A program made the position numbers and the translations under genes. A stretch of DNA of 64,000 nt from Minisyncoccia bacterium (GTDB taxonomy: Bacteria; Patescibacteriota; Minisyncoccia; Phycocordibacterales; GWA1-40-21): positions 71,665 through 135,664 of the forward strand of contig JBAVTE010000012.1 in the NCBI GenBank assembly GCA_049695975.1. The letters are read 5' to 3'. The notes beneath the pieces are model-generated. The model was given only the letters and a program-made list of their open reading frames with translations, searched no databases and had not been told where the DNA came from. Of the stretch, positions 587 through 58,251 are shown piece after piece (position 1 is the first letter of the stretch; each line of letters starts with the position of its first letter).

Positions 587-691
587 ATTATTTTTTTGCT
601 CAAAATCGAGCTTTTGTATATTTTCTAATTTCTATCATTTTTTGCAAGAGTAAAATAGCACAAAACTGTGGATAACTTTTTTGAACAAAAA

Positions 692-912
692 TAGTTAGTA
701 AGAAAAACTTTTTTCGAACGATTTAGCGTAGCAAGCAGAAAATCAACAAAATTTTTAGAAAAACGAGACTGTTTGACGAGTCTGCGAGGAGTTTTGAGTT
801 TTTCGCCCGACCGACACGCTTTCTTAAGCGTTGCGGTCGGGTTAAGAAAATTTTGTATGATTTTCTAGATTGCGTAGCTATTAGTGAGAAAAGAGTTTTT
901 CTTACTAACTAT
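692..912. repeat. MITE-like element A1 (long form) with a nested ~150-nt insertion flanked by GCGTAGC direct repeats
   Basis: The outer 23-bp inverted repeat is TAGTTAGTAAGAAAAACTTTTTT on the left and AAAAGAGTTTTTCTTACTAACTA on the right. The core ends CGAACGATTTAGCGTAGC … GCGTAGCTATTAGTGAGAAAAG match A2, and the extra internal segment is bounded by the 7-nt direct repeat GCGTAGC. A DnaA box TGTGGATAA lies at 666-674, just upstream. Confidence 0.6.
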
Positions 913-4722: not shown

Positions 4723-4977
4723 TTAAACAATCTCTTTTGTAATATTATTTCCTAGTTCTATAAGTTTTTTAAAAATTTTATCTTTTTTTAAAAAAATTTC
4801 ATTTTTTAGGACAGAAGATTCTTTAATTTTCACTTTATTACCCAAAACTTCAATTCTTTTTTCATCTGGATAAAAACCAGTTATAAAAAATATAGCTTCA
4901 ACAACCGTTTTTTTTATAAAAGAATTTTTTTGAGAAAGTTCTTTAAATTTTTCTAAAAATCCAGATATATTAAACAT
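4723..4977 (-). CDS. small hypothetical protein downstream of dnaN (84 aa), possibly DUF721/DciA-like
   Basis: Intact ORF, translationally coupled to dnaN (stop and start abut). The function is guessed from its position only. Confidence 0.3.
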   Translation of the reverse strand: MFNISGFLEKFKELSQKNSFIKKTVVEAIFFITGFYPDEKRIEVLGNKVKIKESSVLKNEIFLKKDKIFKKLIELGNNITKEIV

Positions 4978-6080
4978 TATCTATTCATAGGCATTACGAG
5001 ATATGTGTATGATTTGTCACCAGTTCCACAAATAACCATAGGTTTTGTAAGTCCATTAAAAAATAAGGTAATACTATCTGTATCAATAAATGACAGACAA
5101 TCAAGAATATACTTATAATTAAAATTAATCTCTACATCTTCTCCTTCAAGAACAGAATCTATAGTATTTACATTTTCACCTACATTTGAATTTTTTGTTT
5201 TAAATGTAAAAGTTTTTGTTTTTGGTGAAATTTTTACATTTATTTGATTGAAATTATCAGAAAAAATATTTGAAACTTTTAATGTATTTATGAGATCTTG
5301 TTTTAAAACAGTTGCTTGTGTTTTAAAATCTTTAGCTATTATTTGTTTATAATCAGGAAATGTTCCATCTACTACTCTAGAAACAATATAAATATTATTA
5401 TAAATAAAAGATATTTGATTTTTTGTAATACCAACTTCAATATCATCATCTATATCATCAAAAATTCTCATTATTTCTAGAGTATTTTTAAAAGGAATTA
5501 AAATAGGACTAAAATCTAATGCTCGTTTTGTTTTGATTTTCTTTTCTGCTAAACGAAAAGAATCTGTGGCCACAAAAATAACACTTTCTTCATTACAATA
5601 CATATAAACACTTGAAAATTCTGGCTTTATTGTCGAAACAGAAGAACTAAAAGAGACAGAACGAAGTCCTTTTATTAAATCTTTAGAATTTATTTTAAAT
5701 GTTTTGTCGGCATCTACAAGAGGAATAGTAGGAAAATCTTCTTTTGCATGTGTTTTTATTATTGCCTTATTTGATGGGGTATATATTTTTATATTATCAT
5801 TTTCAGTAGTTTCTATAATAATATTTTTATCTTCATCAGTATTAGTAAGAAAATTGTTTAAAACTTGAGCAGGTATAGCGACAGAGCCACTTTCCTCTAT
5901 TTTAACAGGAATTGATATTTCCACACCAAGATCAAGGTTTGTAGCCTTTATATAAAGTAAATTCTTTTTAGTTTCAAATAAAAGGCAAGAAAGTACTGGA
6001 AGGGTGAGATTTTTACCAGATACCTTTTCTGCTTTTCCAACTACAATACCTAATTTTTCTTTTATACATTCTATTTTCAT
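4977..6080 (-). CDS. dnaN: DNA polymerase III beta sliding clamp
   Basis: 367 aa with typical DnaN N-terminus (MKIECIKEKL...LSCLLFE...). Sits immediately downstream of dnaA. Confidence 0.9.
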   Translation of the reverse strand: MKIECIKEKLGIVVGKAEKVSGKNLTLPVLSCLLFETKKNLLYIKATNLDLGVEISIPVKIEESGSVAIPAQVLNNFLTNTDEDKNIIIETTENDNIKIYTPSNKAIIKTHAKEDFPTIPLVDADKTFKINSKDLIKGLRSVSFSSSVSTIKPEFSSVYMYCNEESVIFVATDSFRLAEKKIKTKRALDFSPILIPFKNTLEIMRIFDDIDDDIEVGITKNQISFIYNNIYIVSRVVDGTFPDYKQIIAKDFKTQATVLKQDLINTLKVSNIFSDNFNQINVKISPKTKTFTFKTKNSNVGENVNTIDSVLEGEDVEINFNYKYILDCLSFIDTDSITLFFNGLTKPMVICGTGDKSYTYLVMPMNR

Positions 6081-6300: not shown

Positions 6301-7638
6301 CTATTTCAACATTGTTTGTATTTGTTCTATTTCGTTTGCAAGTACACTGTCATTTTTAATATCATTTTTAATTTTCTCATATGAATGTATGACTGTCGAA
6401 TGGTCTCTGTTACCCACTTTTTCCCCGATTGATGGAAAAGATATGTCAAAATTTTCCCTCAAAATATACATTATTATCTGTCTTGGTTTAATAACTTCTT
6501 TTTTTCTACCCTTTTCGTATATTTCTTCTTCCTTAATTCCATAAAATTCAGAAATTGTTTTAATAACTTCTTTAACAGATCTATTTTTCTTTGGTTTTGT
6601 GGTATTTTTAATTAAATCTTTAATTTCATTTATGTTTAAATCTTTGTTTTTTAGTTGAGTTTGGCAAAAAATAGAGTTTAAAACTCCCTCAAGTTCTCTT
6701 ATATTACCTTCTATTGATGATGCAAGATATTCTATTATTTCGCTTGATATAGAAAGATTCATAAGGGATGATTTTTTTGTAAAAATTTGGATTCTTGATT
6801 CAAAATCTGGCTTCTGAATCTCCACTATCATCCCTGCATTGAATCTGGATTTAATTCTATCTTCTATATCAGGAATAAAATTAGGGTGTTTGTCTGAAGA
6901 AAATATTAATTGTTTACTATTATCATGAAAATTATTAAACAAATGGAAAAATTCTTCTTGGGACTTGTCTTTTTTTGATAAAAACTGGATATCGTCGATA
7001 ATAAGCATGTCATACTTCTTATATTTTTCTTTAAAATTGTTTATTGTGCCGTTAGTTAAAGAGTTAAAATAATCATTAACAAATTTTTCCGAAGTCATAT
7101 AGAAGATTTTTTTAGTTGGGTCGCTTGTTTTAAAATGATTCCCTATCGCCTGTATGAGGTGGGTCTTACCGTGACCTGTGCTTCCATAAATAAAAAGTGG
7201 ATTATAAATGACAGATTTTTTTAGTATTGCTTGAGATGCTGCGTGGGCGAGCTCATTGAAAGGGCCGACGACGAATGAATTGAAGGTATATTTTGGGTTT
7301 AAGTTGTCTTCTTTGTTTATATAACATTCGTGTAAGGGCAACTCATTGTGATGTGGGGTTTTTGCCTCCTCAGATGATTTTTTTATTTCTTCTTTTGATA
7401 CAAGATATTGAATAGCCCTGATGTGCTCACCAAAATTTCTTAAATTTTTCATAATATCCTTATGATATTTATTGAAAAGCCAGTCTTTTACAAAAACATT
7501 TGGTACGGCCAAAAATACTACGCCATCTTCCTGCTTTATAATATAAGTATCTTTGAACCACATACTAAAATTGGCTTTTGACAGAGCCAATTCCATCCCA
7601 GCGAGAACATTATTCCAAAGCGTTTTGTTGTCTAACAT
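6301..7638 (-). CDS. dnaA: chromosomal replication initiator DnaA
   Basis: Walker A GSTGHGKTHL, AAA+ motifs, and a C-terminal DnaA-box-binding helix-turn-helix (…IGEKVGNRDHSTVIH…). Confidence 0.95.
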   Translation of the reverse strand: MLDNKTLWNNVLAGMELALSKANFSMWFKDTYIIKQEDGVVFLAVPNVFVKDWLFNKYHKDIMKNLRNFGEHIRAIQYLVSKEEIKKSSEEAKTPHHNELPLHECYINKEDNLNPKYTFNSFVVGPFNELAHAASQAILKKSVIYNPLFIYGSTGHGKTHLIQAIGNHFKTSDPTKKIFYMTSEKFVNDYFNSLTNGTINNFKEKYKKYDMLIIDDIQFLSKKDKSQEEFFHLFNNFHDNSKQLIFSSDKHPNFIPDIEDRIKSRFNAGMIVEIQKPDFESRIQIFTKKSSLMNLSISSEIIEYLASSIEGNIRELEGVLNSIFCQTQLKNKDLNINEIKDLIKNTTKPKKNRSVKEVIKTISEFYGIKEEEIYEKGRKKEVIKPRQIIMYILRENFDISFPSIGEKVGNRDHSTVIHSYEKIKNDIKNDSVLANEIEQIQTMLK

Positions 7639-7728: not shown

Positions 7729-7848
7729 CCTGCCCCTCTGAAGAAAGTCCTTCTGAACGGCACGGATATTTTTTTGCTAAAAAATTCCTCGTGATCGCGC
7801 CGTCGCGCTCCCAAGTCCGTTCAGAAGGACTTTCTTCAGAGGGGCAGG
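7729..7848. repeat. perfect 32-bp inverted repeat with a 56-nt spacer, in the dnaA-rpmH divergent intergenic region
   Basis: Left arm CCTGCCCCTCTGAAGAAAGTCCTTCTGAACGG at 7729-7760; its exact reverse complement at 7817-7848. The spacer contains the GC-rich 17-mer TCGCGCCGTCGCGCTCC, which also occurs at ~59745. Confidence 0.8.
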
Positions 7849-9703: not shown

Positions 9704-9831
9704 GTCATAAAAACAGGAGAGTAATGTTTCTTTTATGAACATTGCGCAGGCCGACGGGCCGAGCATAGCAAAAATCTAGCAAGATTTTATGCGCGTTCAG
9801 AAAAGGAATATTACTTTCCTGTTTTTTAATT

Positions 9832-11082
9832 TTAGTTTCCTGCTGGAGAAATTTTAAACTCCCAGAGAGACAAATCTTTTTTGTTTATAAAAATAATGTA
9901 ATTATCTTTTGCGCTTATGACAGGATCGCTTACATCTACGCTTTCATTATCTTTTGTCTGATATAAAAGGGTGGTGGTTTTGTCTGCTGTATTTATTTCC
10001 CAAAAATCATCAGAGAAAGACGCAGAACCGTTGTACCATGCATCGGGGAAGAGACCACTTGGCATGCTTTTAGGTACTGCACAATATACAATATTTGAGC
10101 TCATTTTGCTCCACACACATTTATCAGCAAATGTGCTCAGAGATAAAGAGGAGTCAATATCTTTCTCGATATCCATATATCCAAGTGTTGGTCTTCCTCT
10201 TACATTTTTAGAAAACAAAACACTGTTTCCGTTGTTCCCTACTAGAGTTGTAAGACCATATATATCTCCTGTGACTTGTTCCAAACTTCCGTCTGAAGTA
10301 TTTAAGTCAAATAAAAATCCTTGCATATAGTAACTAGGTTTCGTCAACAAAGACACGGTATTGTCCCCTACCCAACTTGCACTCCAATTTTTTAATTCGG
10401 AAGTAAAGACTTGTTTTTTGCTCGTTCCATCTATATTTCCTGTAAAACCTGCAGAACCACTATCGGTTTCTAATAAGTAAAATATTTTAGAAGAATTTTT
10501 ATTTATTGCAATCGTTTTAATATTTTCTGGTAAGAAGGACCCAGAAATAATTCCCGCAAATTCATTTGAGGTAGAAGCATAGAGAGTGATTTTTGCGGAA
10601 TAAGTTGCTATTTTTTCAGTTTTATCTTTGATGTATCTTAGTAAGACATTTGTACCTGTTTTATCAAAGAGTGCCTCATATATTTTAGGTATAGTGGTGT
10701 TGGTAATTCTTGTAATTTGGCTTGAACCAAAGCTTATTTCATGAATATTGCCATTACTTCTTTCTACCAGTCGTACTTTTTCATTTGGATACACTCCAAA
10801 TATTGTAGCCCCTGCTACTGGTTCCTGGAAAATTTGTTTTAGTCCCAATTCGTTTGCTGTATTGTTTGTGGTAGTGCTAGTAGGTGTACTCGTATCTCCA
10901 AAATTGGCGGTATTTGTATTGGTTTTGTCTACCGAAGTATCACCAAAACCATTTTGTGTCTGGGTTGTATTGTCTACAGGTACATTAGTGTTTGTATTTG
11001 TCCTAAAATAAAAGAAAAGGAATGTTATTAAAATAACGATTGTTATTCCAAGTATTAAAATGATTGCTTTTTTCTTTTCCAT
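9832..11082 (-). CDS. membrane-anchored secreted hypothetical protein (T4SS-like cluster, distal gene)
   Basis: N-terminal TM helix, a T/N-rich linker, then a ~300-aa globular domain. Last gene of the minus-strand cluster. Confidence 0.4.
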   Translation of the reverse strand: MEKKKAIILILGITIVILITFLFFYFRTNTNTNVPVDNTTQTQNGFGDTSVDKTNTNTANFGDTSTPTSTTTNNTANELGLKQIFQEPVAGATIFGVYPNEKVRLVERSNGNIHEISFGSSQITRITNTTIPKIYEALFDKTGTNVLLRYIKDKTEKIATYSAKITLYASTSNEFAGIISGSFLPENIKTIAINKNSSKIFYLLETDSGSAGFTGNIDGTSKKQVFTSELKNWSASWVGDNTVSLLTKPSYYMQGFLFDLNTSDGSLEQVTGDIYGLTTLVGNNGNSVLFSKNVRGRPTLGYMDIEKDIDSSLSLSTFADKCVWSKMSSNIVYCAVPKSMPSGLFPDAWYNGSASFSDDFWEINTADKTTTLLYQTKDNESVDVSDPVISAKDNYIIFINKKDLSLWEFKISPAGN

Positions 11083-11092
11083 TTTATTTTAT

Positions 11093-11536
11093 TTATTGAA
11101 ACCACCCTGGAATTTGAAGAATATCAGGATTGACTGTATATAGGATGAGATATGAGGCAAGGACGAGCAGTAGACCCCAGAGAGCATTAGTTATTTTACT
11201 TTTAGCATCACTCTTTCCATCAAAGGCCTCGGTAGTCATATATTCTACTCCTCCCCAAGCGATCATAAGGACGGCGAGCACGGCAGCAGCAGCAACTCCG
11301 AAGTTATAAACAGAAGCCAAAAATTTTCCCAAATTTCCACTCGTATCTATTTTTTCATTTATCATCGCTTTTTTTTCTAGCGGAACATATTTCATTGTGC
11401 CATCATTATTGTCAGATGGTATAAAGTGTGTGTTTTGGGGTTGAGCATCTTCTGCATTACATAAAGTAAAAGGTATTGCTGTACAAAGTATGAAGAAGGA
11501 AACTATTAATAATGCTATTTTTTTATTATTTTTCAT
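11093..11536 (-). CDS. pilin-like protein, VirB2/TrbC-like (signal peptide plus two hydrophobic helices)
   Basis: 147 aa with an N-terminal signal or TM segment and a C-terminal pair of hydrophobic helices (…AAAAVLAVLMIAWGG… and …LWGLLLVLASYLILY…), typical of T4SS pilins. Overlaps the upstream gene by 11 nt. Confidence 0.45.
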   Translation of the reverse strand: MKNNKKIALLIVSFFILCTAIPFTLCNAEDAQPQNTHFIPSDNNDGTMKYVPLEKKAMINEKIDTSGNLGKFLASVYNFGVAAAAVLAVLMIAWGGVEYMTTEAFDGKSDAKSKITNALWGLLLVLASYLILYTVNPDILQIPGWFQ

Positions 11537-12527
11537 AATTTAATGTAAAACCAAATCTACCAAACTGAAACATTCTATCACGATTTTCTACATTTATGCT
11601 GATGTTTGCACTCCCCGATCCAGATGTCTCGACTTGTTTTAAAATAATAGTATTTTTCTTTCCTGCTGTAGTATAACTTTGTCCATTTACTGACCAAGTC
11701 ATATTTAATCTTGATGAATCTGGTTCTTTTACATCAAAATAAAAAGGAAAAGCTATAATATCCATTTCTTCTTTTGAACCAATATTTATCACACCTGTAA
11801 GGGCTTTATTGAAAAATATTCCATATAATGGATTGTCTTCATACATTAAAATTTTGGGACTTGTTGGAGAAATAGAAATAATTTTCTCTGCTGTAACTTT
11901 TCTGTTGTCATCTTGTACTGTGACATCTATGTCTGTATCATCAGAGATACCATTACCGCTGAAAACAAAAGTATTTTTTCCTCGGCCTGAAGCATCTTCA
12001 TCAACTACCCCGTTTTTCATCCAAGTATAAGTAAGGCTTTTATCTGGTATCTTTGTTCCGTCAATATAAATTTCTGGTATCGCCAGCGCTTTGACAGTTC
12101 CCTGTTTTGCAAAAAGAGGCGAACCTTTGTAAAAATTGGGTGTGTATGACTGTGGCTCAAAAATTATATTTATGTCTCTCGGTTGGATGACTTGTTCGAG
12201 TACATTTGTGGAATTTATAACAGCTTTTACTGTCGTGGATTGTGATTTATTTGATAAATCAAAAGAAAAGCTGGTCAAACCCACCCCTTCTTTTTTCAAA
12301 GTTCCATCCACAAACCATGATATTTGCTCGGTATTTAAATTTTGATAAATGTTTTTGAGAGAAGCTGTGATGGTATCTCTAAATTTTGGATTTATGGGCG
12401 ATATAGTCATACTGGATCCAGAGATTGCCTGTGAATTTGGGGTTTGAGCAAAAGAAAAAATAGGACATATTGATATGGCTGTGAGAATAATAATTAATTT
12501 TAGAGATGTAAGAAAGCTTCTATTCAT
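11526..12527 (-). CDS. secreted hypothetical protein (signal peptide, 333 aa)
   Basis: Cleavable signal peptide and a beta-rich composition. Sits inside the T4SS-like cluster. Confidence 0.4.
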   Translation of the reverse strand: MNRSFLTSLKLIIILTAISICPIFSFAQTPNSQAISGSSMTISPINPKFRDTITASLKNIYQNLNTEQISWFVDGTLKKEGVGLTSFSFDLSNKSQSTTVKAVINSTNVLEQVIQPRDINIIFEPQSYTPNFYKGSPLFAKQGTVKALAIPEIYIDGTKIPDKSLTYTWMKNGVVDEDASGRGKNTFVFSGNGISDDTDIDVTVQDDNRKVTAEKIISISPTSPKILMYEDNPLYGIFFNKALTGVINIGSKEEMDIIAFPFYFDVKEPDSSRLNMTWSVNGQSYTTAGKKNTIILKQVETSGSGSANISINVENRDRMFQFGRFGFTLNYEK

Positions 12528-12548
12528 TTGTTATATTATAACACAAAA

Positions 12549-14387
12549 TTAACCCATCAACCCATTTGCAATACCATATTCTTGTTTTGCTTTTCTGATA
12601 GCGAGGAGCTGTGAAGGATCGGAAGTGATGATTTGATCTTCGGTATAAGATGCATAGATTTTGAGAGCGACATGCTTTGTTCCTACAAAGAAAATACCCT
12701 CTCCTACATCTGATTCAAGCAGTAAAAACTTTTCTTCATCAGTGAGGTTAAATATTTTTTGCAAATTGTCCACAGCCGTCGGGGATTGTTTGAGGAGAAT
12801 TTGTATTGAGGAGTTTGTCACAATAGGTTGCCCATAAGGTGAACGCAAGAAGTCATCGACATCTTGAGTAATAGTAGCAAGACCCAGGAAGTATTTTCTG
12901 CCTCTTTTTGCCATGCCAAAAAGGAATGATGCTGTGTCATCCGATTTCATCATCCACCATGCCTCATCTATCACAAGCAATCTCTTTTTGAGTTGTTTAC
13001 GGACGGCATTCCAAATGTGGTGTGTAATGAGATACATAGCTACTGGCTTGAGTTCATCTTCCATATCTCTAATGGAAAAAACTACGAATTTGTAGTCTAT
13101 ATCAATGTTTGTGGCTTTGTTTAGAAATCCTGCCCATGTTCCTCTCGTATATTTTGAAAGTTTTTGTACAAGTGACTCGGCCCCTTTCATACCAGAAAGA
13201 ACGAGCTCAAAGTCCGAGAGAAGTGGCGCCTCAACATTTGAGAAATCAGAGTCTGGGGTGATATCTTTCAGTGCATATGTCTCCAAAATTGCTTTATCTA
13301 TGATCGCATCTTCTTCTTGTGAAAGTCCGCCAAACATTAGGCGGAAAAGTCCGACAAGGTTTATAATATTTGTTCTCAAAACATCTGCTGATGATTCATC
13401 TTCACGAGCGATAGGAAGATCAAATGGATTCAAGTGGGCATCAGAGTTTAAAGAAATACTAAACGACTTTCCACCAGCTGCCTCGGCGAGGAATTCATAT
13501 TCTTTTTCTGGGTCTATCACAATGACATCTATATCAAACATCAAACTTCGCAATATTTCTAGCTTTGTACAGTATGATTTACCAGAACCAGACTTTGCAA
13601 AAGTGATGGAGTTGTAGTTTTCTAGAGAAAATCTGTCAAAGATTACTAAGCTGGAATTGTGCCTGTTGATACCATAAAGAATACCTTTGTCGGATGTAAG
13701 GTCGAAAGAAATAAAAGGAAAAATACTCGATAATGGGGATGAGTTGAGCTTGGAATGTATTTCAAGGAGGTCTGTGCCTGTTGGTAAAATACTTTTATAA
13801 CCCTGCTCTTGTTGAAAAAGTGCTGGTTTTACATAAATAAGGCGGGATTCAAGGATTGATTTGATTTCCGATTCAAATTTGTTTAGTTCTTCTTCATTGT
13901 CTGCATAAATAGTAATGTAAAGACCAACATCAAAAAGCTTTTCTTGTGCTTGCTGGAGATTGTCGCGAAGCCCTTCGAGGTCTTGGTATGCAGTATCTAG
14001 TACTGGGTCACGCACCAGACCCTTCCTTTCCCTGTCATTTATTTGGCTTTGTACTTCGGCCACTTTTTTCTGAAATTGTCGCAGTATTTTTACTGTGTCG
14101 AGCGGATGAATAAAAATTGAAACATTAAAAACTCTATCAAGGTTGATGATTGGGGCAAACCAGCTTTCAGTGAGAAACCTAGGATAGGAAATAACAAAAA
14201 ATGTTCGAGCTATTTTTTCTCCAAGATTTATTTCTTTCGGCGTAATTTTGAGCGCCGATGGTGCAATGATGTCTTGTAATTCTAGAACCCCAGCCTCATA
14301 TATTTCTTGGGGAAGAAAAGATGTCAGTTCATCTTTTTTGTCTTCTTTTTTGCCGAATAAATTATTTAAAAATGACATATTATGCAT
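12549..14387 (-). CDS. VirB4/TrbE/CagE-family conjugal transfer ATPase, C-terminal ATPase portion
   Basis: Walker A (FAKSGSGKSY) and Walker B (LLVIDEAWWMM) in the spacing characteristic of VirB4. At 612 aa it is too short for a full-length VirB4. Confidence 0.8.
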   Translation of the reverse strand: MHNMSFLNNLFGKKEDKKDELTSFLPQEIYEAGVLELQDIIAPSALKITPKEINLGEKIARTFFVISYPRFLTESWFAPIINLDRVFNVSIFIHPLDTVKILRQFQKKVAEVQSQINDRERKGLVRDPVLDTAYQDLEGLRDNLQQAQEKLFDVGLYITIYADNEEELNKFESEIKSILESRLIYVKPALFQQEQGYKSILPTGTDLLEIHSKLNSSPLSSIFPFISFDLTSDKGILYGINRHNSSLVIFDRFSLENYNSITFAKSGSGKSYCTKLEILRSLMFDIDVIVIDPEKEYEFLAEAAGGKSFSISLNSDAHLNPFDLPIAREDESSADVLRTNIINLVGLFRLMFGGLSQEEDAIIDKAILETYALKDITPDSDFSNVEAPLLSDFELVLSGMKGAESLVQKLSKYTRGTWAGFLNKATNIDIDYKFVVFSIRDMEDELKPVAMYLITHHIWNAVRKQLKKRLLVIDEAWWMMKSDDTASFLFGMAKRGRKYFLGLATITQDVDDFLRSPYGQPIVTNSSIQILLKQSPTAVDNLQKIFNLTDEEKFLLLESDVGEGIFFVGTKHVALKIYASYTEDQIITSDPSQLLAIRKAKQEYGIANGLMG

Positions 14388-15024
14388 TTACGATGGGTTT
14401 TTCTAAATCCCCAGGATTAAATATCTTGTAGAACAATTCAATAATCTCATCTGTACCAAGGGCGATGCTCTTCAGTCCACATCTGATAAGTCCACCTTGT
14501 ATTACTCCGATCCTCTGCTCAAGCTGGGTTCTGTTTTCAAGGAAAGAGTCATTTTTATCTGTGGTTTTTGTTTTTTCTTCTTTTTTGCTGTTAAAAAAGT
14601 TACTAGCAATACTACCGGCATTGTTCGTCGTCAATACTTGTGAAAATGGTATTACTACAAAGAAAGTTTTGGTCATAATGTTGGATTGCTCCACAAAAGC
14701 TTTGATGAAAGCAATATATTCTTTGATTTGTATTTTCATAAGGTCACTAAGCTCGGCTTTGTATCTTTCTTCGAGCTGAGCTAGATACGGTCGGATATCG
14801 AGTTGTCTTGATTGGATGGAAATTTGAACAGAAAAATCAAGAGAATTCAGAAAATTTTGAAATTGATATATGACAGCCTCCTGCTCTTCTCCGGATTTTA
14901 AAGCAAAGTTGACAGATGAAACCATAATAACCGCTCTCATTGAGCCATCTTTTAAAATCATCACTCCATCTCGGATTTCTTTGATGGGTACGAAATCTTG
15001 TGTTGCTTTTGCAATTACCGGCAT
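14380..15024 (-). CDS. probable VirB4 N-terminal domain encoded as a separate ORF (split VirB4)
   Basis: 214 aa ORF overlapping the ATPase ORF by 8 nt. Together 214+612 is about 826 aa, the normal VirB4 length. Confidence 0.45.
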   Translation of the reverse strand: MPVIAKATQDFVPIKEIRDGVMILKDGSMRAVIMVSSVNFALKSGEEQEAVIYQFQNFLNSLDFSVQISIQSRQLDIRPYLAQLEERYKAELSDLMKIQIKEYIAFIKAFVEQSNIMTKTFFVVIPFSQVLTTNNAGSIASNFFNSKKEEKTKTTDKNDSFLENRTQLEQRIGVIQGGLIRCGLKSIALGTDEIIELFYKIFNPGDLEKPIVNA

Positions 15025-15054
15025 AACTATATTATATATTAAAAGACCAAAAAA

Positions 15055-15513
15055 CTATAATCTACTTTCTCCTATTATCCTGCCTAGAGGTTTTTCTTCT
15101 TTTGACACTGGGTTCAATGACTCTTTTATATTTAAACTCCATGTCAAATCTTTTAATTTACTGTCGGAAAGCTTTGGCATATATATAGACTTTTGGGTAT
15201 TATTTTCCGAAATGGTATGTTCTGGTTTTTTATCTGCCTTTTTCCAAATATATAGCCGACTGTTTGTAAAATAATTGAATGCATACTGAATCATAAATAT
15301 AAGAGGTCTGTTGTTTACAGAATAAAAAGCGAGGAGTAAGCCGGCTATTGCCACAGCAAGAGCGATGGGGATGGATAATATTTTGAAAGGAATAAAATAA
15401 TATACCGAAAAAGCAAGACCCACACCTCCACCGATATAAATAAACTGTTTGAAGGTCAATGGTCCAAATATTTTGTCTTCTATATCAATAAATTGTGGTG
15501 TTTGAAATTGCAT
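15055..15513 (-). CDS. PrgI/VirB3-like small two-TM protein
   Basis: 152 aa with the motif FIDIEDKIFGPLTFKQFIYIGGG followed by two TM helices, located immediately upstream of VirB4 as in Gram-positive T4SS. Confidence 0.5.
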   Translation of the reverse strand: MQFQTPQFIDIEDKIFGPLTFKQFIYIGGGVGLAFSVYYFIPFKILSIPIALAVAIAGLLLAFYSVNNRPLIFMIQYAFNYFTNSRLYIWKKADKKPEHTISENNTQKSIYMPKLSDSKLKDLTWSLNIKESLNPVSKEEKPLGRIIGESRL

Positions 15514-15514
15514 T

Positions 15515-16255
15515 TTATTCTATTGGTTCTCTATAGGGGTCTTTTTTGGGCTCTGGTTTCAGAGGGATTTTACTGGTTTCCTCTATCACTACCCTTTCTT
15601 TCGGCATACTAGTCATGCCCCCCATCTTCTCCACTATTACATCCTCTACTTTTTTCTCTGGATTGTCTGAAAGTGAATTTGTTGCAAGAAGTATGGGTTT
15701 CGGATTTGGTGAAATTTGTTTTGTCTCAGAAATATAATTGTTCATAGGTGTTTGTATTTCTACTCCCTCACCCATATCTTCTATCTCTTTTGTTTTTTCC
15801 CCACTATTTGAATTGAGTGAGCTAAAATAAATAGATCCTTCTTTTTTGTGTATTTCGCTTGGATTTTCTATGCCCTCCAATATCGTCGCCCTTGTCATTT
15901 CTGGCTCTTCCAACAAATTTTCCTCGCCCGTTTCTTCATTCATCTTCTGAAGTGACTCTCTTATTTTTTTGAAAATCAAATCATCTACATCCATAGCTAT
16001 TGTATTTGCGACTCTTTCATCTACCTCCATATTTGTCATCAGATTTTTCTTGTAGTCAGCAAGTGATTCAAGCCCCACCATGACGAGCGTCGTCTCGGTC
16101 TCAAGCTTCCCTGCTTGGTCTATCAGTAATTTATTTTTCTTTGTGACCTGATCCAGCGCCGTGCTGTAATCCACCGAAAAAACCGCATCTTTCACATCCT
16201 GTGGAAGCGTCTTCATTTGCTCATCTATTGCATTTTGTAATTGTGTGTCATTCAT
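15515..16255 (-). CDS. hypothetical acidic protein, paralog of the adjacent ORF 16264-16737
   Basis: The N-terminal ~110 aa align with the neighbouring ORF (…QMKTLPQDVKDAVFSVDY…LVMVGLESLADY… versus …QMKKLPQDVREFILSVDY…FVLLGLEPISDY…). Confidence 0.45.
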   Translation of the reverse strand: MNDTQLQNAIDEQMKTLPQDVKDAVFSVDYSTALDQVTKKNKLLIDQAGKLETETTLVMVGLESLADYKKNLMTNMEVDERVANTIAMDVDDLIFKKIRESLQKMNEETGEENLLEEPEMTRATILEGIENPSEIHKKEGSIYFSSLNSNSGEKTKEIEDMGEGVEIQTPMNNYISETKQISPNPKPILLATNSLSDNPEKKVEDVIVEKMGGMTSMPKERVVIEETSKIPLKPEPKKDPYREPIE

Positions 16256-16263
16256 AATTTATA

Positions 16264-16737
16264 TTATTTTGTTGCTATCTCAGCCAATCTTTCCTTTATA
16301 CTTTTTCCACCTACTTTAATCCTTATCGCTGTTACTATTTCGCTGTTTGGCTTTTGTAACATATAATTATTTTTTACCAATGTATTTGAAATATCACTAA
16401 CCGATAACATGTCCTCATCCATTTTCTGTAAGGATTGAAGAATCCTCCTAAAAATATTTTCGTTTACATCCGTCGCTATTTCTTGGGCCTGAATTAAAAA
16501 TATATCGAGATTTTTTTCAAGATTAGCAACATAGTCAGAAATAGGTTCAAGACCAAGCAAAACAAAAGAGGTTTCCATTTCAAGTTTTTCAGTCAATTCA
16601 GCAGATAACTTTTGTCTTTCAGATATCTCTCCAAGTTTTTTTCCATAATCAACAGAAAGGATAAATTCCCGTACATCTTGTGGAAGTTTTTTCATCTGTT
16701 CTGCTACTATTTCTTGTGTCGTTTTTTCTTTTTGCAT
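16264..16737 (-). CDS. hypothetical protein, tandem paralog of 15515-16255
   Basis: Same alignment as 15515-16255 above. Confidence 0.45.
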   Translation of the reverse strand: MQKEKTTQEIVAEQMKKLPQDVREFILSVDYGKKLGEISERQKLSAELTEKLEMETSFVLLGLEPISDYVANLEKNLDIFLIQAQEIATDVNENIFRRILQSLQKMDEDMLSVSDISNTLVKNNYMLQKPNSEIVTAIRIKVGGKSIKERLAEIATK

Positions 16738-16749
16738 ATTTAATATTTT

Positions 16750-19122
16750 TTATTTTGATTCGTGTTGAGTTTCCATACCTTCTGCTAATTTAGCTGCTCT
16801 TGCCATAGAGGTCCATTTTCCAGTCCTACCCTCTCTAACTGAATCTGCATAATTTCTAGCTTTATTTACTACATCTAGTTGTGCTTTTTCAGGGGCAGTT
16901 ATTACAGATGGATCATTTTCTACCTTCTTTTCCGCCTTTGTTTTTATGGCTTTCATTTGATCATCTAGGGCAGCTATTTCACCAGCATATTTCTTCTTAA
17001 GCTCCTCTTGAATTTCCTTTACTTTTTTATCTTTTGTTCTAGCTGCGTCGTTGTAAATTCTCTTTGCTTCAGAGAGTGCTTTTTTGTGCTCAGCTTTTTG
17101 TACAGTGGTACCCGTAGCCATAATACTAGCTGATCTTGTTTCCAGATCCTCTTTTTCTGTCTTTGCATCTGCAAAAGCAGCCTGTTCGTTTACAAGATCT
17201 TTATGATTGTCTCTGACTCTTAGGTAGTCAGTTTTCTGATTTCTTAAATTATTGTAATTAACGTCGCTACCACCGGTATGATAACCAGTAACTGGGTCTA
17301 TGAAGACTGTGCTACTAATACCAGTAGCAGGGTTTACGACAGTCATACCAGCACCATCTAATTGACCTTTTACTACGGTATCTCTAGCCTGTAGAGCAGT
17401 ATTTGCCGCCAATCTTTGCTTACCAGTAACTGATTTATCAAGTTTATTATATATTTCATTTTCTCTTTCCTGTTGTGCTTGTCTAGCTCCTGCAAAACCT
17501 GTTTCTTTACCATAAATTCCACTGGTTTTACCCATATCCATATTGATACCTGTTTGTTTGCTAAGAACACCAGCTACTTTACGTACAGACTCTACATTTC
17601 TAGCATCATATGTGGACTTTGAAGCTTTTTCATATGTTGCCAATTGCATCCTAGCCCTAATACTTCCACTCGCTGCGTCTGCTCTTAATTTCTCACCTCG
17701 GGCACCTTGAAGTTGGCTGTTTGCAAGTCTGCCAATTACTTGCCTACCAGCCAAGGCCACTCCACCCGTTGCAACCCCAAGTCCAAATCCTACTACTTTG
17801 GATCCCAAGCCGTTTACCATTTGCCCCACACTTCCACTGGACTTTTTGGTTATTTCCACAGTTTTCAATATAAGGAAAATTATAATTGAGAAGTTTAGAA
17901 GCATTGCAAAACTAGAAGCAGCACCTGTAAATTCGCCATTACCACTTATCATTGTTGATATGTCAGTTGTACCAAAACCTTTAGCAATTACTAGAGTTAT
18001 AATTATTAAAAGCAAGAATATAGGAATAATAAAAAGCTGTGCGGTAAATTCTTTCCACCACCAGTCTGGAGAGAGACTTTCGAGAGCTTTTACTTTTGAA
18101 AGCATTGTTTTTACACCCGGTCCTAGAAATCCTAATGGAGAAAGAGCTAATAATAAGATTAATGTAACTATTCTTCCTATAAATAAAATACATACAGAGA
18201 AAAAAGCAAAAGCTGCAATAGAATAAATTGCAATTTGTAGTACAAAAAGTATTATTATCCCCAGAATACCAACTGGCTCTGTATTATTGTTTGAACTTAT
18301 TTTATCCTTTCCTTCGCCAAAAAGCCTTGTCCCTTGTGTTGATTGTGGTATACCCAAACCATTAGCAAGACCAGCTGTCAGAGATGATTTTGCTTCTCCA
18401 TTTACCGAGACAACTTGATTGTATAAGGCAGTTGAGACAGTATTGCTTGCATCTATTAAAACTCTCGTAAAGAACATACTAAAGTTTATCAAAAGTCCGG
18501 ATATAACAACTCCGATAATAATTTGTTTTGTAGTATTTCCAGCCTTTCCAATTATTTGAGAAATGCCAGCCCATAAAAGCACAAAAACAAAAAATACATT
18601 AAAAATATCTCTTACAATTGTCCAAACTTTAAATATTCCAGCTCCTATATTTGGATCATCATAATTAAAACCAATAGCTATTCCAAGTGTCCAATCCAAT
18701 AGCTTGGCAGAAATCACCAGCATCATTCCAGCGATAGCTCTTACGACTAAAAGTATATAAGCAATCCCCTTGAGGATAATGCCTAAAAGACCAGAGGCAA
18801 TAAATGCCATGGGGTCTTTCCAAAAACTTATTTGCTTTTCATTCGCCGCCACCCCCGCGTCATATTTTTCTTTAGTTATGATTTGATTCCTATTATCATA
18901 ATAGGTTATAACACCAGTTGTCTTGTTTGTCTCTGTCTGGTATCCATTAGGGGCAGAATAGTATGATATATCACCAGCTGCGACCTCGTTTTTTTGTGTG
19001 GAAATAATTAAAGAATCATTTGGGTTCACAATAAATTTTATCGGCGTCAAAAAAACCCCTAACACTATAGAAAGTGCAACAAAAAACTTAAATGTATTTG
19101 AAGTAAAAAATCTTTTTTTCAT
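16750..19122 (-). CDS. VirB6/TrbL-like polytopic membrane protein with C-terminal coiled-coil tail (790 aa)
   Basis: Signal/TM segment followed by at least 8 predicted TM helices and a charged C-terminal tail. Position and architecture fit a T4SS inner-membrane channel component. Confidence 0.45.
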   Translation of the reverse strand: MKKRFFTSNTFKFFVALSIVLGVFLTPIKFIVNPNDSLIISTQKNEVAAGDISYYSAPNGYQTETNKTTGVITYYDNRNQIITKEKYDAGVAANEKQISFWKDPMAFIASGLLGIILKGIAYILLVVRAIAGMMLVISAKLLDWTLGIAIGFNYDDPNIGAGIFKVWTIVRDIFNVFFVFVLLWAGISQIIGKAGNTTKQIIIGVVISGLLINFSMFFTRVLIDASNTVSTALYNQVVSVNGEAKSSLTAGLANGLGIPQSTQGTRLFGEGKDKISSNNNTEPVGILGIIILFVLQIAIYSIAAFAFFSVCILFIGRIVTLILLLALSPLGFLGPGVKTMLSKVKALESLSPDWWWKEFTAQLFIIPIFLLLIIITLVIAKGFGTTDISTMISGNGEFTGAASSFAMLLNFSIIIFLILKTVEITKKSSGSVGQMVNGLGSKVVGFGLGVATGGVALAGRQVIGRLANSQLQGARGEKLRADAASGSIRARMQLATYEKASKSTYDARNVESVRKVAGVLSKQTGINMDMGKTSGIYGKETGFAGARQAQQERENEIYNKLDKSVTGKQRLAANTALQARDTVVKGQLDGAGMTVVNPATGISSTVFIDPVTGYHTGGSDVNYNNLRNQKTDYLRVRDNHKDLVNEQAAFADAKTEKEDLETRSASIMATGTTVQKAEHKKALSEAKRIYNDAARTKDKKVKEIQEELKKKYAGEIAALDDQMKAIKTKAEKKVENDPSVITAPEKAQLDVVNKARNYADSVREGRTGKWTSMARAAKLAEGMETQHESK

Positions 19123-19202
19123 TTTACTTATTTTACCTCTTTAATTATACCAAATGTAACTCCTTTTTCCCAATCGTCTCTGACTAAAAACTCTTTTGTC
19201 TT

Positions 19203-20879
19203 TTATATTGACTGTAAATATTCTGAAAATGTAGGAATTGTAATGGGGCAATTCTCAGTGGAATAATGTGGATATCTGTTTGCTATGTCATAGGCCTGTA
19301 CATAGATAGATTCAGCCAGACTTACATCCGATGCCTGCCCCTCTGTATGGAAGGGTGGTGCCCCAAGGTCATTTATTTGCGTGCTAGCACTTAGTGTATT
19401 AAGTCTCGAGTCTATTTCTTTAACATTTGTATTACTATCTATAATATTTTTATTTAGTTCCTTAAAAATATCCGTTGTGGTTATAAGGTCTAAAACATTT
19501 GTTTGTATATCTTTAGCCCTTTGGGTGTTGGTGGTAGCGTCGCTACTATCTTGATAATTACAACTCATTGCTTCTGTGAAGGTGCTTCTTATGGATTTAC
19601 TTCCAATATTTAAATAATTTAATATATTATTTTGTATATATTGATAGTCAGTTTCTATATTTCTTTGATTTTTGAGTGCGGTTCTAGTACCTGATAGCGG
19701 ATCGGACGGGTTGGGGTTATTTGGGTTGTTGTTTGTTGAATTTCCCCCGTTTGATGAGTTATTGTAAGAATTTTGAACCGCTTGCTGAGCTTGTAGGTCT
19801 TTGATGGTTTGTTCGTTATCATAGTATTGTTGATCCTTGTTATTACCAGTAAGAGAACTCATCGTTGATTTTAATTGTTCTGTTGCTAATTCCGTTAATA
19901 AATCTACAGATGCAGCGGCTATAATATCGAGCCCATCTCCTATCGCTATTTGCATTTCGGTCATTCTTTGTCCAGAGGTACTTCCGAAAAATAATCTGGA
20001 GGCAATCAAACTCCCTGGACTTTTAACTTTACAAACCGTTTCTACACTTGTGCCTTCTATTGTGTCAGTATTATTATCGCTACCACTTTCTTCATCCATC
20101 GTGTTTTTGGTTGTAACAGGTGGTTTATAGAATGGACTTCCTACATAAGGCTGACCTTGACTTACAAATTGTTTTTGTGTATTGCCAGTTACTGGGTCTA
20201 TGGAAATGTTGTAGGTTGTATCTGTGCATTCTCGTAAAGTTAAGGAACCGCTACCTAGTGACTGTTCTTTGTCAACTTGTCCTTGTTTGTCTTGTCCTAT
20301 TAAGCTGAGTTGACTATCAAACACTAGGAATGCTCCTTCAGGAGTGGCATTTGGGTCGGTGACCATAGTGAGGAAAGAATTCCAACCACCACCACCTATG
20401 AAATCTCCATTTGCAAAATTGGTGTAGGCATCTTTTCCATTTTGTAACGCTCCAGATAGGGTACAGTCTACTGTTTGATAAAATTTTCTGTGTTGCAATG
20501 CCAGAGAAAGTTTTAGTTGTAGTTGAAATGGTTTACACAAAAAACTGAAAGCCGGATTATTATAAAGAAAGTCACCTATAGCAACATCTGCGACATTTGT
20601 AGCGAATCTCTCTGGATCATTAAGAAAAGAAGGATTTCCTTGGAACCCACTTGAAATCCAATCCGCAATACTTTGGCTCATAAAAATAATCGTTCTTTTT
20701 GCGGCGGCTTTAGCAAAAAATACCAAATCAGATTTTGTTTTTTCCCAAACACTAGCTACTACAGTTACTGGAACGGCCTCTGCTTTTTGGGGTAATAACA
20801 AAAAAGAAAAATTCAAAACTATCATTACCGTTATCAGAATTCCGGATAGCACTTTTTTATTTAAATTGTTTTTTAGCAT
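19203..20879 (-). CDS. secreted hypothetical protein with N/Q/T/P-rich low-complexity region (558 aa)
   Basis: Signal peptide, and a PNNPNP-type linker similar to the one in ORF 24145-27174. Confidence 0.4.
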   Translation of the reverse strand: MLKNNLNKKVLSGILITVMIVLNFSFLLLPQKAEAVPVTVVASVWEKTKSDLVFFAKAAAKRTIIFMSQSIADWISSGFQGNPSFLNDPERFATNVADVAIGDFLYNNPAFSFLCKPFQLQLKLSLALQHRKFYQTVDCTLSGALQNGKDAYTNFANGDFIGGGGWNSFLTMVTDPNATPEGAFLVFDSQLSLIGQDKQGQVDKEQSLGSGSLTLRECTDTTYNISIDPVTGNTQKQFVSQGQPYVGSPFYKPPVTTKNTMDEESGSDNNTDTIEGTSVETVCKVKSPGSLIASRLFFGSTSGQRMTEMQIAIGDGLDIIAAASVDLLTELATEQLKSTMSSLTGNNKDQQYYDNEQTIKDLQAQQAVQNSYNNSSNGGNSTNNNPNNPNPSDPLSGTRTALKNQRNIETDYQYIQNNILNYLNIGSKSIRSTFTEAMSCNYQDSSDATTNTQRAKDIQTNVLDLITTTDIFKELNKNIIDSNTNVKEIDSRLNTLSASTQINDLGAPPFHTEGQASDVSLAESIYVQAYDIANRYPHYSTENCPITIPTFSEYLQSI

Positions 20880-20911
20880 TTTGTCTTTTTGATTATATCA
20901 AATATTTAATC

Positions 20912-21895
20912 TTAGCTACTTTTATTCGATATGTATAAATTGATATTACTGATTGATCTACTAAAATCTTGTATAACTTTATCGTATTTTTTTGCGGTAG
21001 TTAGGGATATTATAGGATTCGTATCTACTGCTTTTAGATCTTTTGCAAGTAATGACAAACTATATATAGAATTTGCAAGGAGCAAATGACTATCTGCTAT
21101 TTCTGCTGGAGTTTCTGTATTGATTATTTCTTCCGATGTTTTTTGATATAAGGTAATAATTTTGTCTATGCCTGAGAGAATTGCCGGGTCTTCTTTTGTC
21201 AAAAAAGTATTAGCAATTGAAATTTCCTTAAATACATTATTTTTTATTTCATTGCTATTTATAATTTTATTGATTTTTATTGAATAGTTTGAGATATCTT
21301 TTGCTGTCGGATTGTCAATTATTTTTAAATCCGTACTTGTATATTTTTGCTCAAGTGGCTTGTCTGGAATATTTGCAACAGAATTTGCTACGAGTTCATT
21401 TATTTGGTCAGTTGTTAGTTTTGAGCCATCAGCTGGCTGTACGGCAATATAATCTGAAAAAAGTGATCTTGAAAATCTTTGAGTTTCGTTTAAACTATTC
21501 CATTCTTCCTCATCTTTTGTATTGTTGGCTACGATGGTCGGGTCAATTTTATCATTTGGTTCTTTGTTTTTTCCTGCAGTATTTGGAACGAGCGGATTTC
21601 TGCCTTGAGTGATTTCATCCCCATCGAGCGTTCCATCACCATCTGTATCAGGATTCCTCGGATCAGTTTTCCAGAGTGTTTCTTCCCAATCTACTAAATT
21701 GTCCTTGTCCGTATCAATTGTTTTGATATCTTTTATATTTTGAATAACAATTTGATTATTATTTAAAAATATAGATGTTTCTTTTTCATTAGTTCCTATA
21801 AATTTTATAACAAAAATAATAATGACGAGTGCAATCGCTGTAGACAAAGAAATAACAAATTTTCTAGAAGGGAGATATGTTTTATCAACTCTCAT
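20912..21895 (-). CDS. membrane-anchored protein with Asp-rich calcium-binding (thrombospondin-type-3/dockerin-like) repeat
   Basis: N-terminal TM helix and a DTDGDGTLDGDEITQGRNP motif. First gene of the minus-strand cluster. Confidence 0.4.
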   Translation of the reverse strand: MRVDKTYLPSRKFVISLSTAIALVIIIFVIKFIGTNEKETSIFLNNNQIVIQNIKDIKTIDTDKDNLVDWEETLWKTDPRNPDTDGDGTLDGDEITQGRNPLVPNTAGKNKEPNDKIDPTIVANNTKDEEEWNSLNETQRFSRSLFSDYIAVQPADGSKLTTDQINELVANSVANIPDKPLEQKYTSTDLKIIDNPTAKDISNYSIKINKIINSNEIKNNVFKEISIANTFLTKEDPAILSGIDKIITLYQKTSEEIINTETPAEIADSHLLLANSIYSLSLLAKDLKAVDTNPIISLTTAKKYDKVIQDFSRSISNINLYISNKSS

Positions 21896-27188: not shown

Positions 27189-27215
27189 CCATGTCAAGGA
27201 CGGTCCTTGACATGG
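27189..27215. repeat. REP-like palindrome copy 1 (CCATGTCAAGGAC G GTCCTTGACATGG)
   Basis: Two perfect 13-nt arms around a single central G, lying 26 nt upstream of the Y1-transposase ORF. Confidence 0.85.
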
Positions 27216-27240
27216 TAGGACCAAATAGTATTATGAATAT

Positions 27241-27933
27241 ATGCAAAGAAATATAGTACTTTCAGTTGGTGAATATTATCATATATACAGTCGTGGAGTT
27301 GAAAAAAGAAAAATTTTTCTTAATGAAAGAGATTATGAAAGATTTACAATTTTAATTTACTTATGCAACTCTGAAAAAGTGGTACACGTAAGCGATCATA
27401 AAGAAAAAAAATTAATAGAGTTTTTTGGTTTAGAGAAGGGTAAGAATCTTGTTGATATTGGTGCGTATTGTCTTATGCCCAATCATTTTCATTTATTGCT
27501 TAAAGAAAAAATTGAGGGGGGTATTACCCTTTTTATGAAAAAGCTTCTTACTGGGTATTCAATGTATTTTAATAAAAAATATAATAGAACAGGGCCTCTT
27601 TTTGAGGGGAGATTTAAAGCAAAACATTTGAATTATGATCAATATCTTAAATACCAGTTTACATATATTCATCTTAATCCTATAGGAATTATTGATAATG
27701 GTTGGAAAAACAAAGAAATCAGTAATGTTGAAAGAGGATTGAAATTTCTACAAGATTATAAATATTCAAGTTTTTTGGATTATTCTAGGGGAGAAAGGAT
27801 AACTGGTAAAATATTAAATAAGGGTTCCTTTCCAGAATATTTTCAAAATAAAATTGAGTTTTCTGATATGGTAAAAGAATGGATGAACTTTGAAAAAGAC
27901 GATGTCAAGGACGGTCCTTGCGAAGTTGTGTGA
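27241..27933 (+). CDS. IS200/IS605-like Y1 (HUH) transposase, REP-associated tyrosine transposase (RAYT)-like
   Basis: HxH motif NHFHLLL, conserved Tyr-containing C-terminal half and a Transposase_17-like N-terminus (YHIYSRG). Flanked on both sides by the same palindrome. Confidence 0.7.
   Translation: MQRNIVLSVGEYYHIYSRGVEKRKIFLNERDYERFTILIYLCNSEKVVHVSDHKEKKLIEFFGLEKGKNLVDIGAYCLMPNHFHLLLKEKIEGGITLFMKKLLTGYSMYFNKKYNRTGPLFEGRFKAKHLNYDQYLKYQFTYIHLNPIGIIDNGWKNKEISNVERGLKFLQDYKYSSFLDYSRGERITGKILNKGSFPEYFQNKIEFSDMVKEWMNFEKDDVKDGPCEVV
27902..27920. repeat. REP-like palindrome copy 2 (19-nt core ATGTCAAGGACGGTCCTTG)
   Basis: Identical 19-mer. It lies in the convergent overlap of the transposase 3' end and the rsmA 3' end, and encodes …LRKDRP* of RsmA. 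Confidence 0.85.
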
Positions 27934-30715: not shown

Positions 30716-30802
30716 GGAAACTAACAGAGGAACGGGATACTTTTTGAACGATTTAGCGTAGCTATTAGTGTGAAAAGTATCCCGCCCGTTTGTTAGTTTC
30801 CC
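30716..30802. repeat. MITE-like element A2 (short form): core TTTTTGAACGATTTAGCGTAGCTATTAGTGTGAAAAG flanked by a 29-bp inverted repeat
   Basis: Left flank GGAAACTAACAGAGGAACGGGATACTTTTT and right flank AAAAGTATCCCGCCCGTTTGTTAGTTTCC are inverted complements. The core matches the two ends of element A1 (692-912). A perfect DnaA box TTATCCACA follows at 30811-30819. Confidence 0.6.
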
Positions 30803-31068
30803 CTTTTCACTTATCCACACCCCCCACATTTGTCAGTTGACTTGACCGTCCTAGGGTGTATCATTATTAGTAACCCTGAAATTACAGAAAATGCGAAATA
30901 ATGGCTAATCAGAGCCATTAAATAGTTCAGACAGGCAGAAAACCCTTAATTTATCGGCTTATTTCTTACAATTACCATAAAAATGATCATCGGGCCACTG
31001 ATTGCAGTTCCTATGATTCTAAAATAACCTTATTTATAGACACATATATCAAATGGTTTGGTGCTGTT

Positions 31069-32114: not shown

Positions 32115-32247
32115 AAAAACAAAATTTTCGTAGCAAAGTGCTTTTGAACATCCTTGGGAGTCGCGACTGGAGACGGACAGAGAAAATTTTTTGCAAAAAA
32201 TTTTCGTGATGGTCAAAAGCATTTTGTGGAGGGAGTTTTTGTTTCAG
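32115..32247 (+). repeat. MITE-like element B1 (palindrome-embedded repeat, family B)
   Basis: ~80-nt core CTTTTGAACATCCTTGGGAGTCGCGACTGGAGACGGACAGAGAAAATTTTTTGCAAAAAATTTTCGTGATGGTCAAAAG, about 90% identical to B2 and B3, set inside its own flanking inverted repeat. Lies between the convergent lysM-M23 gene and comM. Confidence 0.7.
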
Positions 32248-36300: not shown

Positions 36301-36301
36301 A

Positions 36302-54812: not shown

Positions 54813-54832
54813 ATCTTCCATTACATGGACGG

Positions 54833-58240: not shown

Positions 58241-58251
58241 AAAATAACTAT

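Follow-up and report, generated by a model that had tools for sequence, protein, structure and literature searches.

Family A, a pair of strong intergenic hairpins in the 64,000-nt stretch of DNA analysed here (the window), is best explained as a non-autonomous, strand-specific hairpin module of the REP or IS200/IS605 type that is moved as single-stranded DNA, a reading to which we assign a probability of roughly 40%. What was found goes beyond an ordinary MITE, but it falls within a known kind of element. Features that speak for this reading include a loop conserved on variable stems, the lack of outer duplications, strand asymmetry, turnover between relatives and the presence of a Y1 transposase gene.

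The window derives from the MAG of a Minisyncoccia bacterium (candidate phyla radiation), with a G+C content of 35%, and contains the dnaA-dnaN region (dnaA at 6301-7638 and dnaN at 4977-6080, both on the minus strand), where the GC skew switches sign. One family A copy, A1, is situated between two minus-strand genes: on one side is the stop codon of tyrS (924-2123), on the other the promoter of an acidic ORF of 70 aa (374-586). The second, A2, lies between two divergent genes, uvrD/pcrA on its left (28710-30653, minus strand) and a LysM/M23 peptidase gene on its right (31069-32112, plus strand). Beside the origin region, a minus-strand gene cluster at 9832-21895 has the appearance of a type IV secretion-like system; it includes a TraG/VirB4-like P-loop ATPase (12549-14387), a PrgI-family protein (15055-15513) and many ORFs with no Pfam match, and T4SS-pilin matches are found in the corresponding neighbourhood of relatives.

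A2, the compact form, spans 30716-30801 on the plus strand and consists of two 29-nt arms (30716-30744 and 30773-30801) forming an imperfect stem (86% complementary), a 38-nt core (30740-30777) and a tip hairpin, TAGC-GTA-GCTA, at 30754-30764. An earlier note on this DNA had described a 29-bp inverted repeat here; the repeat and its hairpin are real, with a core of 38 rather than 36 nt and an end at 30801. The fold is much more stable than chance (z = -7.8; 0 of 200 shuffles equally stable), and the element scores 80 bits against R1, a covariance model of the compact family A form.

A1, the long form, shares the ends of its core with A2, as previously noted, but its inverted repeat is longer than had been described: the complete element occupies 681-922 on the plus strand and is built from a 35-bp outer stem (arms 681-715 and 888-922, 35 nt each, 94% complementary), a basal motif, a split tip and a tip extension of 139 nt. 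The 5' half of the core, CTTTTTTCGAACGATTTAGCGTAGC (709-732, plus strand), holds the exact 17-mer GAACGATTTAGCGTAGC that A1 and A2 have in common, and the first 7 nt of the 3' half, GCGTAGCTATTAGTGAGAAAAG (872-893, plus strand), repeat positions 726-732. Between the halves, the extension or 'insert' (733-871, plus strand) has TIR-like ends, AAGCAGAAAATCAACAAAATTTT and AAAATTTTGTATGATTTTCTAGATT, that are mutually complementary over ~25 nt, and contains a conserved inner block, ACTGTTTGACGAGTCT, as well as a GC-rich inner hairpin (806-819 paired with 828-841). Both the bounding GCGTAGC repeats (726-732 and 872-878) and the internal hairpins (806-841) are present as the earlier note proposed. Where the compact tip reads TAGC-GTA-GCTA, that of A1 reads TA[GCGTAGC]-139 nt-[GCGTAGC]TA, so that the two copies are accounted for by a single exact 7-nt duplication of TA[GCGTAGC]TA, the tip found in A2. 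In the folded strand these copies are opposed as GC/GC pairs around a symmetric GUA/GUA internal loop. Computed as RNA, A1 has a minimum free energy of -108.8 kcal/mol on the plus strand against -89.8 kcal/mol on the minus strand (z = -13); computed as DNA, its fold gives z = -13.4, with 0 of 200 shuffles equally stable.

The tip duplication and the complementary ends fit an insertion. The closest relative examined (L036; TyrRS 81% identical) carries the long form at the orthologous site: its insert keeps the inner block ACTGTTTGACGAGTCT, is missing the GC-rich hairpin and shows a compensatory change from GCAA/UUGC to GUAA/UUAC that preserves pairing, and its counterparts of the two GCGTAGC copies have drifted to GTGTAGT and ACGGAGC. 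Because L036 has the insert at the same site, the event is old, not recent. The nested insertion suggested earlier thus stands in its anatomy (139 nt placed in the tip, TIR-like ends, an exact 7-nt duplication), but not as a recent event. The long form may be an ancient insertion later retained as structure or a structural expansion; the same data fit both.

Family A is scarce, with two copies in 64 kb and only the ortholog in ~100 kb of relatives. The 17-mer GAACGATTTAGCGTAGC occurs exactly twice in the window, and R1 run over 172 kb (window genome and relatives) recovered only A2, the copy described below and part of A1, with no further copy. An exact 17-mer scan of genome_contigs (185,579 species genomes) gave 15 matches, of which 14 were due to chance and one was real: a third copy in a Lachnospiraceae MAG (L011:4797-4857), where a 16-bp stem has GAACGATTTAGCGTAGC-G-ATTAGTG-AAAAG as its loop sequence. 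All 17 matches from the same scan of metagenome_contigs were due to chance, as were all matches of degenerate patterns for families A and B in viral_contigs. BLAST of the core returned nothing from plasmids and, from phages, only a chance match in a coding region.

The cores of A1, A2 and the Lachnospiraceae copy are 100% identical over 17 + 7 nt, while the stems that carry them are unrelated and the arms have nothing in common beyond CTTTT/AAAAG. Since three identical cores stand on unrelated stems, family A conserves its loop and exchanges its arms, the reverse of a terminal-inverted-repeat transposon. In a four-sequence alignment of the family, 91.6% of stem cells are paired, 10 pairs have changed on both sides and none of 500 shuffles reaches the covariation score; the inner pairs are invariant.

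These observations bear directly on the first alternative, in which family A is a classical DDE-type MITE, A1 is such a MITE carrying a second one within a 7-bp target-site duplication, and a single transposase serves the ends of families A and B. The ~25-nt TIR-like ends of the insert, the exact 7-nt repeat that flanks it as one duplication of the tip, and the enrichment of CTTTT..GAAC at hairpin elements are all what such a history would leave. We nevertheless consider it improbable: the arms of the A copies are unrelated, no flanking direct repeat was found at the outer stems of any copy (only the inner 139-nt piece of A1 has the 7-nt repeat), the insert is single-copy in about 170 kb of the window genome and relatives, no DDE transposase was found among the ~50 window proteins checked, and two family B copies (in L034 and L038) are without the motif. 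The label 'MITE-like' is apt for a non-coding repeat that is gained and lost; it does not suit an element with differing arms, a conserved loop and no outer duplication.

Gain and loss are visible at orthologous sites, where A2 and two family B elements of the window (B1 and I5) are missing in relatives and other hairpins stand in their place. A2 is missing in all of L041-L045. In L041 and L045 it is replaced by a hairpin that differs between the two genomes; in L044 a UbiA gene has been inserted and the neighbouring DnaA box is degenerate (TTATTCACA). B1 is missing from the orthologous site in relatives and I5 from that in L037 and L038. Family A as a non-coding repeat gained and lost between close relatives is supported by these comparisons.

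The A1 locus has also been rearranged. In L036 the core lies on the tyrS strand and in the window on the opposite strand; since the flanks are collinear, the segment between the A1 arms has been flipped in one lineage. In relatives with 70-73% identical TyrRS (L037, L085 and L086), ruvC comes immediately after tyrS, both on one strand, and relative to these genomes the block comprising the acidic ORF and ruvC is inverted in both the window and L036, with A1 exactly at its tyrS-side junction. An opposite interior between collinear flanks, enclosed by 35-nt arms that are 94% complementary, could be imagined as an invertible switch whose flipping changes the expression of neighbouring genes. This is very unlikely, since the difference is one between species rather than within a population, the sole other assembly of the window genome has A1 in the same orientation, the interior has no promoter-like site and no invertase gene is adjacent.

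The window holds a candidate mobilising unit at 27195..27933 on the plus strand, a 230-aa Y1/HUH transposase gene (27241-27933) bracketed by the hairpins ATGT-CAAGGAC-G-GTCCTTG at 27195-27209 and 27906-27920. Its product matches Pfam Y1_Tnp with 32.1 bits (cut-off 23), HFH and YIHLNP motifs are visible in the translation, and the best NCBIfam match is to the REP-associated tyrosine transposase, with 37 bits and thus below the cut-off of 80; a PDB sequence search with the protein gave no match. Homologues number more than 7600; among the best 120 of these, the named ones are from candidate-phyla-radiation bacteria, one is annotated RayT and many lie on ~1 kb contigs. In relatives the unit is missing and an ordinary terminator hairpin takes its place; the unit was recently acquired, and alignment to the relatives did not fix its exact ends. 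Enzymes of the Y1/HUH class (IS200/IS605, RAYT) move hairpin-bearing DNA as a single strand and in a strand-specific manner, and the IS200/IS605 and RAYT enzymes recognize a short adjacent target sequence and leave no duplications. The build of families A and B agrees more closely with such a mechanism than with a DDE one; the parallel between G(A/T)AC| and GTGA| ends is no more than suggestive. We infer that the 27241-27933 enzyme or a paralogue moves family A. The flanking hairpin itself is present in three local copies and differs in sequence from the hairpins of families A and B; the single mobilising enzyme proposed in the earlier note accordingly has a candidate in the window, one that is not a DDE transposase and whose flanking hairpins are not those of A or B. 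The third CAAGGAC-G-GTCCTTG copy (28417-28431) lies in frame inside ksgA, where it encodes PRTVLD at a position with other residues in relatives; the last residues of KsgA (KDRP*) are also hairpin-encoded.

Family B, with at least five window copies, is larger than the earlier note had reported. It comprises B1 (32115-32244, plus strand), with a variable stem and a ~55-nt core with two hairpins, B2 (58240-58396, plus strand), I2 (51193-51333, minus strand), I5 (7729-7848, minus strand), which lies directly against the -35 element of the promoter of rpmH, upstream of dnaA, and I7 (9709-9826, plus strand); outside the window, copies were found at L034:9948-10024 (the same genome) and L038:6977-7070. 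Each copy places a different long stem around the ~55-nt two-hairpin core, in which 9 of 17 pairs show compensatory changes and the loop of the second hairpin reads TAGCAA. The motif CTTTT(N0-2)GAAC occurs nine times, seven of them at hairpin elements, against ~2.4 expected by a rough base-composition estimate. A terminal motif shared by families A and B holds for most copies, as GAAC precedes 7 of the 8 A and B cores in the window genome and almost all end in GTG(A), but it does not extend to the copies in L034 and L038, both of which are without CTTTT..GAAC.

Other hairpins are abundant in this DNA. Long perfect palindromes (arms of 17-31 bp, loops of 1-4 nt) are numerous in the window, with palindrome sites at 47956-48020, 29265-29307 (inside the uvrD coding region), 41540-41580, 36299-36342, 51966-52000 and 245-367; the stem of the last is related to that at 47956-48020 but encloses a 37-nt loop, and the hairpin is bracketed by TAGTGAAAAAAG and CTTTTTGAAC. 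Downstream of tRNA-Lys(UUU) and tRNA-Arg(GCG) lies a common core of ~100 nt (85% identical; 54797-54948 and 59391-59583), each copy bracketed by a duplicate and a complement of the 3' end of its own tRNA; here too the acceptor-like stem is locus-specific and the core conserved, the same logic of core and stem as in families A and B. Outside the window, a 15-bp stem, AAATCTCTAAACAAT, is kept in three genomes between ruvB and a T2SSE ATPase gene (L034:2720-2866, L036:4845-4991 and L037:13703-13848), where it encloses a conserved interior of ~117 nt and may represent a conserved non-coding RNA.

The core-sense strand folds better than its complement in all four family A copies and in all family B copies. 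In family A, 15 G-U pairs fall on the sense strand and 5 on the antisense strand; the corresponding numbers for family B are 20 and 4 (35 against 9 over both). The strand difference is 5-20 kcal/mol with RNA parameters; with DNA parameters it has the same direction but is small (2-7 kcal/mol). G-T is only a weak pair in DNA. The G-U bias suggests that the element acts single-stranded, and the asymmetry can be read in two ways, with the strand preference arguing for RNA and the genomic positions arguing for DNA. Orientation to neighbouring genes is inconsistent across copies: A1 and the Lachnospiraceae copy are antisense to both neighbours, the L036 copy is sense to tyrS, and A2 and I5 lie between divergent promoters close to start codons. 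This inconsistency, together with the placement of A2 and I5, argues for an element that acts at the DNA level.

The strongest alternative to a mobile single-strand DNA module is a structured RNA, either cis-acting in untranslated regions or terminators or a small RNA. Its long variable stem would serve in processing (for instance, as a substrate of RNase III) or in termination, and a protein would bind the conserved tip. Both the general proposal and these specific roles seem to us possible, if rather unlikely. The bias of G-U pairs to one strand, the size of the strand difference with RNA parameters, the covarying stems with conserved loops, the many outer stems with A-runs and T-runs resembling bidirectional terminators, the location of most B copies between convergent genes and the sense orientation of the L036 copy are what would be expected of an RNA. 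Against this, searches of Rfam at gathering and permissive thresholds with the whole window, A1, A2 and the Lachnospiraceae copy returned only generic hairpin noise, no promoter-like site was found in 300-1000 and hence none inside A1, A1 and the Lachnospiraceae copy run antisense to the genes on either side, A2 and I5 are placed upstream of promoters that sit near the start codons, and the element is not retained at orthologous sites. A 6S-like RNA was set aside because there is no central bubble, and for the core we rejected a K-turn, hammerhead, CIRCE, LexA box, dif, attC, parS and Ter, which do not fit in spacing or polarity.

As the earlier note had observed, a perfect DnaA box lies within 20 nt of both window copies; the distance is 6-10 nt, and the first box is at 667-675 (minus strand, upstream of the acidic-ORF promoter), one position from where it had been placed. 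The second (30811-30819, plus strand) precedes the TTGACT-16-TATCAT promoter (30837-30864) of the LysM/M23 peptidase gene, the two together spanning 30811..30864. The box sequence TTATCCACA occurs seven times in the window (at 667, 6280, 30811, 36618, 37746, 38254 and 44666) compared to 0.56 expected, and 0 of 100 shuffles reach seven. Box 667-675 is kept in L036; in L037 the box and promoter of the acidic ORF follow directly after yebC with no hairpin, and L041 and L045, both without A2, keep the box and TTGACT promoter of the peptidase gene. Because relatives without the element keep box and promoter, the boxes are host promoter elements that are older than the family A element. The Lachnospiraceae copy has no DnaA box. 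Adjacency to a box is therefore not general, as the earlier note had asked of it, and is not a property of family A; in this genome it is statistically unusual, as if the element favoured the spacer that immediately precedes promoters of this kind. Several perfect boxes lie just upstream of promoter-like sites (those of the acidic ORF and the LysM/M23 peptidase gene, and at 36618 and 37746) and the dnaA-dnaN spacer contains only one, a distribution that suggests a DnaA regulon rather than origin boxes.

The tip of family A resembles that of plasmid single-strand origins. In ssoA origins, the CS-6 motif (TAGCGT) lies in the terminal loop and the RSB in the basal stem (PMC4598088, PMC8860593, PMC4595007). 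The family A tip reads TTAGC-GTA-GCTAT-TAG, next to ATAGC-GTGA-GCTAT-TAA in pC194 and GTAGC-GACA-GCTAT-TAA in pE194, and the pattern TAGCG[N1-3]AGCTATTA matched only these tips among all sequences examined. By the definition of ssoA (PMC4598088), a long hairpin carries CS-6 (TAGCGT/A) in its terminal loop; the A2 tip has this feature, whereas the RSB (TTATGCCGAGAAAATTT) is absent from the loop-distal stem, with only GAGAAAA in common. The similarity is real but confined to a tip of ~17 nt, and we treat it as a lead to single-strand DNA biology.

A fuller interpretation of this likeness is that family A is an sso-like origin or priming hairpin at which RNA polymerase or primase starts the complementary strand, with a coupling to the adjacent DnaA box that might be added. 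The tips matching pC194 and pE194, the strand-specific fold and the type IV secretion-like cluster in the window would suit this proposal, which we find highly doubtful given that the RSB is absent, R1 found no ssoA on five plasmids, the plasmid and phage BLAST searches were empty, the location is chromosomal with no rep gene nearby and the DnaA boxes are older than the element. Fork orientation is also mixed: read against an origin on the dnaA side, the sense strand is the lagging-strand template for six copies and the leading-strand template for three.

For the preferred REP/IS200-type module, we propose that the recognized part would be a small hairpin with short flanking motifs, approximately GAAC|GATT-TAGC-GTA-GCTA-TTAGTG(A), read in single-stranded DNA by a Y1 (HUH) transposase, and terminal inverted repeats would not be what is recognized. 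The module would sit in the tip of long palindromic intergenic hairpins at terminator or insulator positions; hairpin tips are thus its putative target, and residence in the tips of palindromes already in place would explain the locus-specific stems. A1 would be the same module after an old second event that brought a 139-nt hairpin-shaped piece into the tip, with GCGTAGC at both junctions representing target plus element end, or a duplication, and recombination between the arms may later have flipped the element in one lineage. The hairpin in place is probably also a terminator or insulator before the DnaA-box promoters, and any role of family A in the host is putative.

Several observations weigh against a REP/IS200-type module. 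The CAAGGAC-G-GTCCTTG hairpins of the transposase are unlike those of A and B, which leaves the link between enzyme and element a presumptive one; the copy number is low (two in 64 kb); the compact form is a single hairpin, in contrast to the two employed at IS200/IS605 ends; DDE transposition leaves an exact 7-nt duplication more typically than Y1 transposition does; a G-U asymmetry of this strength would be expected of RNA more than of DNA; and for none of the copies did we find its stem as an empty hairpin.

We also considered whether families A and B together form a new class of hairpin-tip-targeting single-strand DNA modules that have their place in palindromic terminator loops, bear a tip of the ssoA type recognized by RNA polymerase and pass between the candidate phyla radiation and Firmicutes. 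This is distinctly unlikely; if it were true, it would suggest that DNA moves between an episymbiont and its neighbours or host. The genomes of the candidate phyla radiation are very small and are regarded as carrying little mobile DNA, yet the window has several hairpin repeat families, a recently acquired Y1 transposase and a rapid turnover of intergenic hairpins between close relatives. Should the Y1 link hold, it would provide an enzyme-substrate pair for the spread of hairpins and the remodelling of promoters and terminators in these organisms, and the identical Lachnospiraceae core would mark a cross-phylum exchange. Should the match to the ssoA tip be functional, chromosomal hairpin repeats would be tied to signals of rolling-circle replicons.

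Three groups of known systems bear comparison with family A. The ssoA (palA) origins of pC194, pE194 and pT181, which are active only as one strand, are likewise long imperfect hairpins with a terminal hairpin in which CS-6 (TAGCGT) is followed by GCTAT-TAA/TTA, and family A shares with them a fold that favours one strand; unlike them, family A has no RSB, neither a rep gene nor a plasmid setting accompanies it, the length of A2 is only 86 nt and the similarity stops at the ~17-nt tip. REP/BIME sequences with their RAYT enzymes, along with IS200/IS605 and its miniature derivatives, resemble family A in several ways: the palindromes are short, imperfect and intergenic and have neither target duplications nor classical terminal repeats, the hairpins are strand-specific and often lie at gene ends, a hairpin-flanked Y1/HUH transposase gene is present in the genome and the distribution among relatives is patchy. 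Family A differs from these in its low copy number, in a transposase-flanking hairpin that is not its own, in an NCBIfam RAYT score under the cut-off, in a conserved part held at the tip of a long locus-specific stem and in an identical core in another phylum. Lastly, the ERIC/IRU, Correia and Rickettsia palindromic elements are likewise intergenic and imperfectly palindromic; they measure 100-250 nt, occur in both orientations, include variants with internal insertions and can act as terminators. A related hairpin of the window lies in frame inside ksgA; those elements conserve their whole sequence, arms included, whereas here it is the loop only that is conserved.
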